Virus record (IMG/VR): IMGVR_UViG_3300045988_003400
Location: 1 to 6,302 of that record
Length of the DNA stretch: 6,302 bases
Source: a virus
Strand: one strand, 5' to 3'
Below are positions 2,968 to 6,302 of the stretch, piece after piece; positions within the stretch are counted from its first letter, which is position 1, and each line of letters begins with the position of its first letter. A program made the position numbers and the translations under genes. The notes under the pieces are model-generated. The model ran no database searches. It was not told the DNA's origin and saw only the letters and a program-made list of their open reading frames with translations.

Positions 2968-2995
2968 TTATATACGTTAGTCCTTTAAAGACATT

Positions 2996-3026
2996 ACCCG
3001 GCCGTATTCGATGCGTGCCGGGTTTT
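2996..3026 (+). terminator. Candidate intrinsic terminator hairpin ending the late (VP1-VP2) transcript
   Basis: The stem pairs 2997-3006 with 3012-3022: CCCGGC/GCCGGG plus CGTA/TGCG, with T3016 bulged and one G.T pair. The loop is 5 nt (TTCGA). TTTT follows at 3023-3026. It starts 29 nt after the VP2 stop. The T tract is short, and the hairpin could instead belong to the ssDNA structure described below. Confidence 0.5.
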
Positions 3027-3027
3027 G

Positions 3028-3335
3028 CTGCTTGGAGTAACTTCCGGCAACCGCGCGAAGCGTGGTTATACACCTCCTGAATTCCGGGAGACCCCGTCGA
3101 CTGGAATCAGAGCCGTTAGGCTATAGTACTGCCTTCCTTAAAACTTGATGCTTGCAACGCGTAAGCAATTTCCCGGAGAGCCTCTCTCTACCGTCGCTGC
3201 TATACCCTTTAAAATATAAATTGGCGAAGCCTACATGAGTTTGCCCGAAGGGAAAGCTATTCACCTCATAGCTTTCAGTCTCCTCTTGTCTTATATACGC
3301 AAACTCACAGACCAGCCTGCCACCCATATAGCTTA
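3028..3335 (+). other. G+C-rich, hairpin-dense non-coding element; candidate replication-origin / ssDNA-structure module
   Basis: Hand count gives 147 G+C in 3031-3330 (49%), against 40/100 in coding nt 101-200 and 16/80 in 3341-3420. Helices with stated pairings:
- 3049-3056/3060-3067
- 3077-3085/3103-3110 (A3080 bulged)
- 3111-3114/3119-3122
- 3149-3155/3161-3167
- 3223-3225/3229-3231
- 3236-3244/3299-3307 (9 bp, long range)
- 3252-3260/3268-3276 (9 bp, perfect)
There is no plausible + strand ORF. Confidence 0.6.
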
Positions 3336-3366
3336 TTGTTTATTAATGTTAATATTTACGTTGACA

Positions 3367-3399
3367 TTTGTTTTTTTTCAAACGTTTATTATATATTTG
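3367..3399 (+). promoter_or_regulatory. Bacteroides-type promoter (-33 TTTG, -7 TAnnTTTG) for the rightward operon
   Basis: TTTG at 3367-3370 and TATATTTG at 3392-3399 are separated by 21 nt, matching the published Bacteroides consensus and its 19-21 nt spacing. The region is AT-rich. The first ATG of the downstream ORF is at 3417, which implies a short leader. Confidence 0.55.
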
Positions 3400-3416: not shown

Positions 3417-3614
3417 ATGTCTAATTTAAATTGTAAATGTATGGAAAAGTTTTATTTGTGCTCTGTGCAGTCTAAGGTGAATCCCACTCAGAATGAGACT
3501 GTTCTTGTTTCTGTTGAGGATATTTCTGAGTTTGTATCTTCATGTATGGCTCCTGATTGTGTTATTATTGTTTCAAGTTGTTCAACCTTTAACAAACTTC
3601 CTGATGAAAAGTGA
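3417..3614 (+). CDS. Hypothetical 65-aa Cys-rich acidic protein
   Basis: This is the first ATG in the 3336..3614 open frame; the upstream part begins at TTG and overlaps the promoter. Third-position T bias is strong, as in the other genes. Six Cys are present (CKC...C...C..PDC......SC). The stop is TGA at 3612-3614. I recognise no family. Confidence 0.5.
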   Translation: MSNLNCKCMEKFYLCSVQSKVNPTQNETVLVSVEDISEFVSSCMAPDCVIIVSSCSTFNKLPDEK

Positions 3615-3693
3615 AACTAAATCTAAAATCTGGTCTGCGATTATTGCAGCTGCTGTTAGCCTTCTTACGTCTATTTCTCAAATATTTTCGTAA
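3604..3693 (+). CDS. 29-aa single-pass membrane peptide; candidate holin/pinholin-like or signal-anchor segment
   Basis: The ATG at 3604 overlaps the end of the upstream ORF (ATGA context). The product MKSETKSKIWSAIIAAAVSLLTSISQIFS has a charged N-terminus followed by an Ala/Ser/Ile-rich hydrophobic stretch. It lies directly upstream of, and in frame with, the M15 peptidase. Its small size makes the coding call uncertain. Confidence 0.45.
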   Translation: MKSETKSKIWSAIIAAAVSLLTSISQIFS

Positions 3694-3696
3694 GTC

Positions 3697-4005
3697 ATGA
3701 ATCCGGCACTAATGCAATTTATCGAATGGCTCCTTCGTTGGAATATTCATTTCTCGGTTACTTCTGCTCTTCGTACTAAGAAAGAAAATGAAGCGTGTGG
3801 AGGTTCTGAGAATTCCCAACACTTAACAGGCGATGCTGTTGATCTGAAGCCTCTTGGTTCTTCAGTAGATTCTTTTATATTGAAAATCAAAGAATCTGGT
3901 TTTAAGTTTGATCAACTTATAAGATATCGTACGTTTGTTCATATATCCTTTGCTCGTGGTCGTAATCCTCGTCAAATGGAACTTAATTTTACCGATAAAA
4001 AATGA
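3697..4005 (+). CDS. Zinc D-Ala-D-Ala carboxypeptidase-like peptidase, M15 family (Peptidase_M15_3/M15A-like); probable endolysin
   Basis: The 102-aa product contains TSALRTKKENEACGGSENSQHLTGDAVDL and a later FVHISF. These match the SxxR...GG..SxH..G.A.D ... H zinc-ligand (H, D, H) signature of M15 peptidases. The stop overlaps the Rep start (ATGA at 4002-4005). Confidence 0.82.
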   Translation: MNPALMQFIEWLLRWNIHFSVTSALRTKKENEACGGSENSQHLTGDAVDLKPLGSSVDSFILKIKESGFKFDQLIRYRTFVHISFARGRNPRQMELNFTDKK

Positions 4006-5699
4006 TTACTAAGGAATTACAGAATAAGCTAGTTACTCGTTGTCAGAATCCTCGTACGGTTGTCAATAAGTATACACATGAGCCCGTTGTTGTTTCTTGT
4101 GGTTCTTGCCCTTCGTGTGTTCTTCGTCGTTCCGGAATCCAGACTAACCTGCTTACTACTTATTCTGCTCAATTCCGTTATGTATACTTTGTTACTCTTA
4201 CTTATGCTCCTTGCTTTCTTCCTACTTTGGAAGTTTCGATTGTTGAGACTTGTACGGATGATGTTGCGGATGTACCCTGCTTTCCTGATATCAATGATTT
4301 GGACGCTGGTGACCCTAACACTTATATGTTTGGTTTTCGCAGCGTTCCTCGTTCCTCTTCTGTTAGGTTAAAAAATTCTACTGTAGAACGTACATTCAAA
4401 GACCCTGAGATAAGGTTTTCTTACTCCATGAAGCCTAAGGACTTGCTTTTTATTCTCAACAAAGTTAAGCATAATGTTCCGAATAGAATTCCTTATATTA
4501 ATAATCGTGACCTTGATTTGTTTTTGAAACGTTTAAGAAGTTATTATAGAGATGAAAAACTACGTTACTACGCTGTATCAGAATACGGACCCACGAGTTT
4601 CCGCCCGCATTGGCATCTGTTATTGTTTTCCAATTCCGAGCGATTCTCGCAAACTGTTTGTGAAAATGTATCTAAAGCTTGGTCTTACGGACGTTGTGAT
4701 GCGTCACTCTCGAGAGGATTCGCAGCACCGTATGTTGCGTCGTATGTTAATAGCTTTGTCGCTTTACCCGACTTTTATACTCAGATCCCAAAAGTGGTGC
4801 GACCTAAGTCCTTCCATTCCATTGGATTTACCGAATCAAATCTCTTTCCTGGAAAGGTACGAATTGCCGAAGTTGACGAAGTTGCCGATAAGTGCCTTGA
4901 TGGCGTCCGCGTTGAACGCGATGGCTATTTTCGAACAATTAAACCTTCTTGGCCGTATCTCCTTCGATTATTCCCCCGATTTTCGGACGCTATTCGTAAA
5001 TCTCCATCGAGTGTTTACCAGTTACTTTTTGCTGCGTTCACAGCGCCCGAACGCGTCATTCGTAGCGGATGCGCTGATATAGGATGTGATCCGTTTGGTG
5101 AAAGTCCCAATCAAAGTGTTTTGTCTTTTTGTAAATATTATTTAAATTATGTAGATAGTTATGGAAAATCAAATGAACATAGGAGCTTACTCTCTCCTAA
5201 GGCGAATTTACCGCATAGTGATATTCTCATTCTTACTGAATGTCGTTTGTATGATGGTGTTGATCTGGAACCTCTTCATCGTCTCTCCCGTGTGTACCGC
5301 TTTTTCCTCGGAATTTCTAAATTTATTCGAACGTATTCAACAAATGGATGCTCAGAACTCTTCTGGTCCAGCGGCACTCCTGGAGGAGAACTCTTTTGTC
5401 GAGAAAGATTTTTGCGAATAATCTCCGAGAAAATAGTTGAATTCTGGAATCGTTATGATTACAATCGTCTTGTGGATTTTTATCAAACTTTGGAAGATTC
5501 AAATGATAAGGAGTTGGTAGACTTTGAGCTTCGTAACTATTCCTTCCGTTATAATAGGTCTGTCCGTGATAAGGAAAAACCTTACCATGAATTGCCTCTT
5601 GTTCGTCGTTTGGCTGCCGCTTCATTGATGAAATGTAGGGATAAGGTTAAACATAAGAAGGTTAATGATTTGTTCGGTATTTTCTCTTATCAGAATTAA
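4002..5699 (+). CDS. VP4: Rolling-circle replication initiator protein VP4 (HUH endonuclease; phiX174 A analog)
   Basis: The product is 565 aa. An N-terminal Cys cluster reads CGSCPSC. Motif I is FVTLTY (nt 4188-4205). Motif II is RPHWHLLLF, with HWH at nt 4608-4616. Motif III is the two-tyrosine YVASYVNS, with Y codons at 4731 and 4743. The stop is TAA at 5697-5699. Confidence 0.93.
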   Translation: MITKELQNKLVTRCQNPRTVVNKYTHEPVVVSCGSCPSCVLRRSGIQTNLLTTYSAQFRYVYFVTLTYAPCFLPTLEVSIVETCTDDVADVPCFPDINDLDAGDPNTYMFGFRSVPRSSSVRLKNSTVERTFKDPEIRFSYSMKPKDLLFILNKVKHNVPNRIPYINNRDLDLFLKRLRSYYRDEKLRYYAVSEYGPTSFRPHWHLLLFSNSERFSQTVCENVSKAWSYGRCDASLSRGFAAPYVASYVNSFVALPDFYTQIPKVVRPKSFHSIGFTESNLFPGKVRIAEVDEVADKCLDGVRVERDGYFRTIKPSWPYLLRLFPRFSDAIRKSPSSVYQLLFAAFTAPERVIRSGCADIGCDPFGESPNQSVLSFCKYYLNYVDSYGKSNEHRSLLSPKANLPHSDILILTECRLYDGVDLEPLHRLSRVYRFFLGISKFIRTYSTNGCSELFWSSGTPGGELFCRERFLRIISEKIVEFWNRYDYNRLVDFYQTLEDSNDKELVDFELRNYSFRYNRSVRDKEKPYHELPLVRRLAAASLMKCRDKVKHKKVNDLFGIFSYQN

Positions 5700-5727: not shown

Positions 5728-6302
5728 ATGGCTTCTTACACTGGAATGTCCAATCTCCAGAATCATCCTCACCGTTCTGGATTCGATATTGGACGTAAAA
5801 ATTGCTTTACTGCAAAGGTTGGTGAGCTTCTCCCTGTCTATTGGGATATATCAATGCCCGGTGATAAATATCGGTTTAACGTTGAGTATTTTACTCGCAC
5901 TCAACCTGTTGAAACATCTGCTTATACTCGCGTTCGTGAGTACTTTGATTTTTATGCTGTGCCGTTACGTCTTCTTTGGAAGTCTGCTCCTTCTGTATTG
6001 ACACAAATGCAGGATGTTAATCAGATTCAAGCGTCGTCTTTGACACTGAATTTGGCTTTGGGTTCTTATTTACCCTCTCTAGCTCTTAATGTTTTAGGCT
6101 CTGCTTCTGTTCGTTTGAATGGAGGTTCCACGTCTCCTGGTAATAGTTCAGGTTTCTCAAATTCATTTGGTTTTTCTCGTGCAGATTGTTGTTATAAACT
6201 TTTGAGTTATCTTGGTTATGGTAACATTATGAAGGATGTCCCTTCTTCTGGTCGTTGGTGGTCTACTTCTTTAACTAATTCTGATGATTCTGCTAGTTAT
6301 AC
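5728..6302 (+). CDS. VP1: Major capsid protein VP1, N-terminal portion (runs off the window end and continues at nt 56 of the circle)
   Basis: The ATG at 5728 is the first start after an in-frame TAA at 5716-5718. There is no stop before the window end. The translation MASYTGMSNLQNHPHRSGFDIGRKNCFTAKVGELLPVYWDISMPGDKYRF...REYFDFYAVPLRLLW is a typical microvirus capsid N-terminus. The ORF track missed it because the stop lies beyond the window. Confidence 0.92.
   Translation, partial: MASYTGMSNLQNHPHRSGFDIGRKNCFTAKVGELLPVYWDISMPGDKYRFNVEYFTRTQPVETSAYTRVREYFDFYAVPLRLLWKSAPSVLTQMQDVNQIQASSLTLNLALGSYLPSLALNVLGSASVRLNGGSTSPGNSSGFSNSFGFSRADCCYKLLSYLGYGNIMKDVPSSGRWWSTSLTNSDDSASY
6248..6302. repeat. 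Terminal redundancy: right copy of the 55-nt repeat
   Basis: Exact identity to nt 1-55. Confidence 0.9.

Follow-up and report, generated by a model that had tools for sequence, protein, structure and literature searches.

A conserved 29-residue predicted membrane peptide encoded next to an M15 peptidase in gut microviruses: a candidate two-gene lysis cassette

The peptide and peptidase genes

The window analyzed here is the whole stretch of 6,302 nucleotides (nt) of IMG/VR virus record IMGVR_UViG_3300045988_003400, from a microvirus. At positions 3604–4005 it contains two small genes, the first for a 29-residue peptide with one predicted transmembrane helix and the second for a 102-residue M15 peptidase. 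The layout is an ATG at 3604, a TAA at 3691–3693, a single GTC codon at 3694–3696, a second ATG at 3697, and a TGA at 4003–4005, and both open reading frames (ORFs) are in the same phase. A first-pass annotation, made from the letters of the window, had read this as a two-part or read-through lysis module; its ORF coordinates, TAA/GTC junction, and shared phase all agree with the sequence and the ORF list. Comparison of related genomes shows that both genes are under purifying selection and are tightly linked across two clades, and we predict that they may act together in lysis.

3604–3693, + strand: gene for a 29-residue single-pass membrane peptide, candidate holin-like (based on the ORF list, conservation, and the ratio of nonsynonymous to synonymous substitution rates, dN/dS)
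3691–3696, + strand: stop-start junction, TAA plus the GTC spacer codon, before the peptidase ATG
3697–4005, + strand: gene for a 102-residue Peptidase_M15_3 protein, candidate endolysin (based on PF08291 and PHROG 894)

The peptide (MKSETKSKIWSAIIAAAVSLLTSISQIFS; 29 residues, ATG 3604–3606 to TAA 3691–3693) has the N-terminus MKSETKSK, with a net charge of +2 (charges at K2, E4, K6, and K8), and a hydrophobic, Ala/Ser-rich helix at approximately residues 9–28 (nt 3628–3687). The weakly hydrophobic transmembrane segment described earlier is recovered as one stretch, with a best 19-residue Kyte-Doolittle (KD) mean of 1.75, slightly over the classical cut-off of 1.6; the transmembrane call is made by hydropathy only. 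The helix ranges from 1.75 to 1.88 over 19 residues and from 1.95 to 2.11 over 17 residues. The hydrophobic moment of the window peptide is greater than in 99.6% of shuffles, and the helix has a polar stripe, S11-A15-S19-T22-Q26.

Related genomes were gathered via the peptidase (13 from GenBank and 80 from IMG/VR) and the DNA 5′ of each peptidase start was examined; the peptide was surveyed with custom scripts, exact-sequence look-up, and a degenerate DNA pattern. The small ORF at 3604–3693 proved to be conserved: it is intact, and adjoins the peptidase gene, in 92 of 94 related peptidase-bearing genomes (68 of the window clade, 23 of clade B, plus microvirus mar62). In the 68 genomes of the window clade, the peptide has the consensus MK[SN]ETKSKIW[SA]A[IV]IAAAVSLLTSI[AS]QIFS or is near-identical to it. 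The 23 genomes of clade B, in which the peptidase is about 50% identical, encode M..N[IL]W[KR]I[IV]IGAVSAALGY[IV]LN[AS][IL]GL, and the mar62 peptide is a form intermediate between the two.

The off-frames of this T-rich genome hold many small hydrophobic ORFs, so a hydrophobic small ORF by itself is within chance. Conservation of the small ORF, unlike hydrophobicity, exceeds chance. In the window clade, 56 distinct DNA sequences encode 16 peptide variants, and the codon-position entropy of the ORF is 0.43 at third positions compared with 0.13 at first and 0.04 at second positions. The dN/dS (Nei-Gojobori) is 0.09 in the peptide's own frame, compared with 1.7 and 1.2 when the remaining two frames are read. 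Conservation is stronger in the peptide than in the peptidase, as judged both by mean amino acid identity (94% vs. 75%) and by dN/dS (0.09 vs. 0.20). From these substitution patterns, we have little doubt that the 29-residue ORF is a genuine gene. At synonymous sites, the peptide ORF has diverged roughly half as much as the peptidase gene (proportion of synonymous differences, pS, 0.24 vs. 0.49), which suggests a further constraint on the nucleotides themselves, for example from translation coupling or local structure.

A 66-residue version of the peptide with two helices, starting at an ATG at 3493, was rejected. The extension has a dN/dS of 0.96, compared with 0.19 for the Cys-rich frame that it overlaps, an in-frame ATG is missing from the upstream DNA of 22 of 66 relatives, and the preceding stop is not at a constant position.

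Public protein sets already contain the 29-residue product as “hypothetical protein [Microviridae sp.]”. We examined the annotation of 14 clade A and B relatives in GenBank, and none lists the ORF separately. In Dulem viruses 226, 238, and 243 (loci L009, L010, and L013, positions 1138–1200), a 124-residue “peptidase” coding sequence (CDS) starts from an upstream in-frame ATG; its extra 21 codons are the mini-peptide ORF in the wrong frame, and this CDS is probably a mis-annotation. A tblastn search of a phage collection with the peptide gave no match.

The earlier assignment of the 102-residue product to the M15 peptidases is borne out by profile search: it matches Peptidase_M15_3 (PF08291) at 51.1 bits, above the curated cut-off of 23.2 (E = 1.7e-13), and PHROG 894 “endolysin” (E = 2.2e-18). 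Two further remarks of the first-pass annotation also hold. The protein lacks a signal sequence, with no hydrophobic N-terminus or hydrophobic segment (maximum KD 0.66), and it is N-terminally short, with the Pfam match covering profile positions 32–108 of 108. Homologues in tailed phages and other microviruses have approximately 35–50 more N-terminal residues (FTxxEF...GIDN). GenBank relatives annotate the window-type enzyme as “peptidase”.

The protein contains a zinc triad of the form H-x6-D...H, comprising H42 (3820–3822), D49 (3841–3843), and H82 (3940–3942), that is invariant in 49 relatives and in endolysins of double-stranded DNA (dsDNA) phages. In alignments, H42 and D49 fall on H66 and D73, which are zinc ligands of the phage T5 L-alanoyl-D-glutamate peptidase, and on the NSRHxxGxAxD motif of 1lbu, a Zn DD-peptidase of Streptomyces. 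Residues invariant across microviruses and dsDNA-phage endolysins alike are S23, R26, N31, G36, S40, H42, A47, D49, and H82. The position three before the third His is Thr79, and is likewise Thr in the homologues of Burkholderia phage KS9 and Stenotrophomonas phage Siara. The T5 endolysin has an acidic residue here, which we take to be Asp130; the invariant Asp72, in an FDQLI motif, is a plausible candidate substitute for it.

An AlphaFold2 (AF2) model of the peptidase, based on 49 sequences, has a predicted local distance difference test score (pLDDT) of 92.9 and a predicted template modeling score of 0.83. Foldseek matches to the PDB are weak (best E = 1.4e-3, template modeling score about 0.5). 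The top entries are mostly of LAS type, and the top structures are 1lbu, hedgehog N-domains, LysB4, the RB49 and T5 endolysins, Ply500, VanY, and LdcB. Foldseek matches to BFVD are M15 peptidases of microviruses and tailed phages (best E = 6e-12, template modeling score 0.85). Sequence searches of the PDB gave marginal matches only, to the T5 enzyme (2mxz, E = 0.0095) and to ChiX (5opz, E = 0.037). The peptidase is modeled as a LAS-fold zinc peptidase and is predicted to cut peptidoglycan.

Homologues of this enzyme occur in lysis cassettes of tailed phages. In KS9 and Bacteroides phage BS-TP2, the homologue is annotated as an endolysin and its gene is directly preceded by a holin gene, separated by 2 nt or overlapping by 4 nt. 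In Siara, two holin/antiholin genes instead come after the endolysin gene, and a holin is thus upstream in two of the three cassettes examined. Spanins are encoded in the KS9 and Siara cassettes.

Pairing across lineages and the stop-start junction

The linkage of peptide and peptidase also holds when the search starts from the peptide: all 63 IMG/VR contigs found by the peptide DNA pattern carry the peptidase as well. The peptides of four lineages are alike in architecture, with a basic N-terminus and an amphipathic helix with an i/i+4 stripe of small or polar residues. Across lineages, the hydrophobic moment is greater than in 94–99.9% of shuffles, and the helices have analogous i/i+4 stripes of small, hydroxyl, or amide residues.

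Bajarodmic viruses 465 (L110, 1163–1252) and 146 (L114, 1143–1232) have a conserved 29-residue transmembrane ORF downstream of a full-length peptidase gene, overlapping its stop. The overlap uses a ATGAAAAGTAA junction, the same as that found 5′ of the window peptide gene. The pairing of a membrane ORF with the peptidase therefore recurs, in a different order. MT135365 (L115, 1109–1201) is possibly similar; in such lineages the peptidases have 140–160 residues and the transmembrane ORF 29–30. Dulem virus 245, which has no peptidase, encodes a 65-residue protein (L119, 4176–4373) with a mini-peptide-like N-terminus, MKITSQQWIEIVKLISTFVVGVITCLF, a lipobox-like VQAC, and a Ser-rich tail. This protein may be an extended homologue of the peptide or another lysis solution.

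The arrangement at 3691–3696 raises the question of whether the two ORFs are one gene or two. The peptide stop is present in 92 of 92 intact copies, alternating between TAA and TAG. At 57 of 66 window-clade loci the spacer is 3 nt long, and the remaining loci have spacers of 9, 12, 13, 15, 16, 32, or 56 nt. The spacers of 9, 12, or 15 nt hold additional in-frame stops (two to four stops in L018, L024, L050, and L033, the four in L033 arising from tandem TCGTAA repeats). The phase is broken at five window-clade loci (L031, L035, L041, L056, and L058, with spacers of 13, 16, 16, 32, and 56 nt). In clade B and in mar62, the peptide TGA overlaps the peptidase ATG (ATGA, –4 nt), which places the peptidase in the +1 frame. 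Overall, a 3-nt spacer or an ATGA overlap is found in 75 of the 89 loci measured. The N-terminus of the peptidase (MN...) is conserved as a start, and no fused ORF was found among the database members of the peptide clusters, in which the longer members are N-terminal over-calls with the same C-terminus.

A shared frame alone has a chance of one in three, and we take it here to be a lineage-specific accident of the 3-nt spacer. The peptide and the peptidase are almost certainly separate genes, and the pattern of stops and spacers marks TAA-GTC-ATG as a junction of the termination-reinitiation type, not a read-through site. The junction (window positions 3688–3699) is also a hotspot of small TCGTAA(N) tandem duplications, seen in L018, L024, L031, L033, L041, L050, and L056; these generate two to four consecutive stops or frame changes, and neither ORF is disturbed.

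Several single-protein models were considered and rejected. A read-through fusion of the signal-anchor-release (SAR) kind conflicts with the conserved and multiple in-frame stops, the frame-breaking spacers, and the +1 frame of clade B. A SAR endolysin is also contradicted by the fact that helix and enzyme are separate ORFs in every relative and by the low maximum hydropathy of the enzyme N-terminus. Programmed stop read-through fails because five window-clade loci are out of frame, several have multiple stops, and all of clade B is in the +1 frame. The peptide is not the missing N-terminus of the M15_3 domain, since the missing segment (FTxxEF...GIDN) is hydrophilic and unlike the peptide. 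A split gene is further disfavored by a lineage that has a full-length enzyme and still has its own mini-peptide.

Neighboring genes and host

The window represents a microvirus genome that is circular and complete. Its two ends (1–55 and 6248–6302) form an exact 55-nt direct repeat, which is the overlap of a circular assembly, so the true length is 6247 nt. Joining the ends untrimmed produces a false frameshift in the capsid gene. The + strand carries every gene of the window. The features outside the peptide and peptidase genes are the following.

99–1322, plus the window 3′ end, across the junction, + strand: major capsid
1337–1819, + strand: internal scaffold (by synteny with annotated relatives)
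1819–2967, + strand: DNA pilot
2994–3345: ORF-free block of approximately 350–370 nt between the DNA pilot gene and the Cys-rich ORF
3367–3399, + strand: candidate Bacteroides-type promoter (TTTG ... TAnnTTTG), located 18 nt 5′ of the string's first ORF
3417–3614, + strand: small acidic Cys-rich ORF of 65 residues, the final 11 nt of which overlap the start of the peptide gene
4002–5699, + strand: replication initiator, Rep (based on the ORF list, PF23343, and PHROG 942)

The four ORFs at 3417–5699 are arranged as a single tightly coupled string, because the peptide gene starts within the 3′ end of the Cys-rich ORF and the Rep gene in turn starts across the peptidase stop (ATGA at 4002–5). In GenBank, the closest genomes, at approximately 80% nucleotide identity, are fecal microviruses of lemurs (Dulem viruses 236 and 257) and rodents (bajarodmic viruses 1134 and 410). 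No match was obtained when the window was scanned for Rfam families and tRNAs.

The Cys-rich ORF has 65 residues when counted from the ATG at 3417; relatives annotate 57–58 residues and label it a hypothetical protein. Its frame is under purifying selection (dN/dS 0.19 across 60 relatives). It has no Pfam, PHROG, or NCBIfam match, and a fold search with its single-sequence AF2 model (pLDDT 72) gave no informative match. An acidic Cys-rich ORF is kept in both peptidase clades and in the relatives that lack the peptidase, always just 5′ of the mini-peptide or Rep.

The pattern TTTG-N17-23-TAnnTTTG has three matches in the window, compared with 0.32 expected, and one of these is at 3367–3399. We take this consensus, from the promoter literature, to be that of Bacteroides promoters, which makes the site a candidate only. 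A sigma-70 scan of the + strand found no promoter.

The block at 2994–3345 reaches 55% GC, compared with approximately 35–40% elsewhere in the genome. Its nucleotide identity is 80–91% in more than 45 relatives, about equal to that of the surrounding coding DNA. RNAalifold analysis of 19 sequences gives a structure of 76 predicted pairs, and 10 of these show compensatory double changes (for example, UA/CG 12:7, CG/GC 11:8, GC/AU 10:8, and GC/UA 10:9). The predicted structure is specific to the + strand because it includes many G-U pairs. The block could be a structured RNA or a structure of the packaged single-stranded DNA (ssDNA), for example a complementary-strand origin.

The host of a close relative is indicated by a 17.9-kb Logan contig (SRR29785387; L109, positions 1250–7790), which carries the same peptide ORF and a peptidase that is 82% identical. 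It is flanked by a gene for a tetratricopeptide repeat (TPR) protein and a universal stress protein gene that is 88–91% identical to those of Bacteroides intestinalis and B. stercorirosoris. Because of these cellular flanking genes, we consider the relative an integrated, single-copy Bacteroides prophage. The host genus of this close relative is Bacteroides, and a Gram-negative envelope is therefore the relevant context. Homology of the prophage to the window ends near window position 3362, which places the attachment site between the structured block and the promoter of the string of small ORFs, lysis genes, and Rep; no integrase is encoded. A peptidase profile search of cellular genome contigs found no prophage of the window clade, only distant, partial homologues (33–53% identity) in Bacteroidales and Alphaproteobacteria, the most similar being in Bacteroidales.

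Lysis, alternative roles, and known systems

We lean slightly toward the view that positions 3604–4005 are a two-gene microviral lysis cassette, composed of a holin-like mini-peptide and an endolysin. Of the three options raised by the first-pass annotation, this pair is the one supported, by conservation, linkage, and the cassettes of dsDNA phages; the read-through or SAR option and the split gene are not.

The 29-residue peptide would insert in the cytoplasmic membrane with its basic N-terminus inside; from this N-terminus, an N-in, C-out orientation is predicted by the positive-inside rule. The peptide would oligomerize and permeabilize or depolarize the membrane, in a holin-like or viroporin-like manner. 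Its predicted amphipathic helix with an i/i+4 stripe is the design of oligomeric pore-lining helices. The signal-less 102-residue peptidase would build up in the cytoplasm and gain access through the membrane lesion, after which peptide stems or cross-links would be cut and virions would leave the Bacteroides host. The termination-reinitiation junction would keep both products co-expressed. An enzyme without an export signal needs the cytoplasmic membrane to be opened in some other way, and the adjoining peptide, which is under selection, is the obvious candidate for this. We infer that the peptide inserts in the membrane with this topology and forms holes, that the peptidase is muralytic, and that it depends on the peptide.

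A number of observations weigh against such a cassette. At 29 residues and without a charged tail, the peptide misses two classical holin hallmarks; it is, to our knowledge, about half the size of the smallest holins, and in a search for a charged, hydrophilic C-terminal tail it was found to end 1–2 residues past the helix. Searches of Pfam and PHROG gave no family at E ≤ 0.1 for the peptide (the best match, phrog_443 “holin”, has E = 0.13 and is not significant). Holins are not usually conserved to such a high degree, and the peptide could thus have a specific target in the host. A one-helix 29-mer would have to let an 11.7-kDa enzyme pass, and no outer-membrane (spanin-like) function was identified in the window. 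Microvirus mar63 has the peptidase without such an ORF, and in L026 the ORF is disrupted. M15 domains also occur among the structural neighbors within large tail or virion (entry) proteins of tailed phages. Finally, Dipodfec virus UOA04_Rod_499 and bajarodmic virus 429, which lack the peptidase, keep a conserved 26-residue peptide, M[NS]KVWKEI[IV]RA[FI][VI]TAAISVLTTLGIM. Since a similar peptide is kept without the peptidase, the peptide evidently can function without the enzyme.

This last observation is also the main argument for a rather unlikely alternative, in which the mini-peptide alone brings about lysis, as phiX174 E and the single-gene lysis (Sgl) proteins of single-stranded RNA phages do, and the peptidase is a later-acquired accessory. 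The peptide would either inhibit murein precursors from being made or exported, at a step in the membrane, or disrupt the membrane directly, and the peptidase would speed or complete wall breakdown, for example in slow-growing gut cells. In size, the peptide is within the range of the smallest Sgl proteins. The 26-residue peptide has the same architecture and occupies the same slot (positions 4480–4560 in UOA04_Rod_499, L120, and approximately 902–982 in bajarodmic virus 429, L123), where it overlaps the stop of the acidic ORF and ends approximately 10 nt before Rep; the peptide may thus be the older component. These two genomes have 77% nucleotide identity, and the changes in the ORF are mostly synonymous or conservative. 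A degenerate DNA pattern for the peptide of this peptidase-less lineage had no match in IMG/VR. The greater conservation of the peptide relative to the peptidase would be expected if it fits a conserved host target. Reviews describe lysis of ssDNA phages as the work of Sgl proteins, each acting singly and without enzymatic activity (PMC10707117), and peptidase genes are sporadic, horizontally acquired accessories in Microviridae (PMC3394797, PMC9239249). However, the window clade strictly co-inherits and couples peptide and peptidase (63 of 63 contigs), and a signal-less peptidase would be useless after the burst, yet its dN/dS is 0.20. The retention of a peptidase without the peptide in mar63 also argues against single-gene lysis, and the Pfam and PHROG searches found no homology to a known Sgl protein.

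It is improbable that the peptide has a role unrelated to lysis, such as a tether or regulator in replication or assembly, superinfection exclusion, or a leader ORF that, when translated, governs expression of the peptidase and Rep genes behind it. The coupled string does end in Rep, the peptide lies directly before Rep in the relatives without the peptidase, and the low pS of its ORF hints at constraint at the nucleotide level. However, selection at the amino acid level and the conserved amphipathic transmembrane design suggest that the peptide acts in the membrane. Two other lineages have a similar ORF at the 3′ end of the peptidase gene, not before Rep, and lysis cassettes likewise combine a membrane protein with a peptidase of this family.

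We consider it very improbable that the peptidase is an entry-associated or non-lytic wall-remodeling enzyme and the neighboring peptide coincidental. The M15 domains of large tail and virion proteins and the missing N-terminal segment of canonical family members are compatible with this; however, the peptidase is a free 102-residue product, its closest characterized context is a holin-endolysin-spanin cassette, and the tight linkage to a membrane peptide would be left unexplained. We know of no microvirus virion component of this kind. The first-pass annotation had also raised a 133-residue, membrane-anchored SAR-type peptidase made by read-through, a split gene or very recent nonsense change, or a sequencing error at 3691, for which only the same-phase TAA-GTC-ATG layout and the SAR-like Ala/Ser-rich helix speak; with the stop in all 92 ORF-bearing relatives, extra stops, broken frames, the other frame in clade B and mar62, and no fused form among relatives or database cluster members, this is hardly credible.

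M15 peptidases had been reported in metagenomic Microviridae before, as the first-pass annotation believed. Roux et al. (2012) described M15_3 peptidases in gut Alpavirinae and Gokushovirinae and proposed that they are endolysins; an adjacent “unknown” ORF was present in 5 of 11 genomes, and no membrane partner was named (PMC3394797). Kirchberger et al. (2022) referred to microvirus peptidases as “lysis-associated accessory genes”, again with no membrane partner named (PMC9239249), and later work treats them likewise. Full-text searches, in a collection that does not extend to all journals, gave no description of a membrane-peptide partner of a microvirus peptidase. Knowledge of the enzyme half goes back to 2012; the conserved mini-peptide, and the fact that it is coupled to the enzyme, seem not to have been described.

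Lysis is little understood in microviruses other than phiX174, some of which rank among the most abundant phages of the mammalian gut. The 2012 proposal of an endolysin left open how a signal-less enzyme reaches the wall, and a peptide coupled to it in approximately 98% of relatives gives a two-gene hypothesis. There is also a systematic annotation gap: the GenBank relatives examined do not have the ORF annotated, and some of their records place an over-extended peptidase CDS on top of it. If the cassette is real, the peptide would be the smallest holin-like protein known and a compact tool for lysis or permeabilization of Bacteroides. A possible model is a microvirus isolate that infects Bacteroides, which now exists (PMC13064476). 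More tentatively, and with some doubt, we suggest that the peptides of 26–30 residues found beside or in place of the M15 peptidase in Bacteroides-type gut microviruses may constitute a previously unrecognized family of minimal lysis proteins of phages, to which the endolysin would be a modular, exchangeable second part. They would then be the smallest holin-like or single-gene lysis effectors known, able to kill or permeabilize Bacteroides alone, and microviruses would span one-gene to two-component lysis.

The closest parallels by enzyme family are KS9 gp41/gp42, BS-TP2 gp5/gp6, and Siara gp26-30. Their enzymes have 31–42% identity to the window peptidase, likewise lack a signal peptide, and share the motifs S..R...N...G...S.H..G.A.D...DQLI...H. 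However, the holins of these tailed-phage cassettes have 104–149 residues and multiple features, whereas the partner in the window is a single helix of 29 residues with no charged C-terminal tail. KS9 and Siara have spanins and none is evident in the window, and the window enzyme lacks the N-terminal segment of approximately 40 residues. By sequence, the closest solved relatives are ChiX of Serratia marcescens (5opz) and the T5 peptidase (2mxz), which are remote and have aligned zinc ligands; the T5 enzyme differs in the acidic residue before the third His, replaced by Thr79 in the window. ChiX is an M15 L-Ala-D-Glu endopeptidase that depends on the holin-like protein ChiW.

The peptide also resembles the pinholin S21-68 in its weakly hydrophobic helix rich in small residues, and its job could be depolarization and not the formation of large holes. 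The pinholin of phage 21 has 68 residues and two transmembrane domains, and the endolysin R21 of that phage carries its own SAR anchor. In the window, no hydrophobic segment is present in the enzyme, and the helix is made as a product of its own, 29 residues long. As a very small one-helix membrane protein of a tiny phage, the peptide is comparable to phiX174 E and to the small Sgl proteins of single-stranded RNA phages, such as LysM. E is a 91-residue MraY inhibitor that is overprinted inside gene D and needs no enzyme. The window ORF is instead free-standing, save for an 11-nt overlap, and is normally paired with a muralytic-type enzyme, and it has no similarity to E or to PHROG lysis families. 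TisB, a type I toxin that forms pores or depolarizes the membrane, also has 29 residues. The peptide is like TisB in its size and its amphipathic single transmembrane helix, which could act through oligomeric pores; the two are not homologous, their genetic contexts differ, and no antisense-RNA control is evident in the window.

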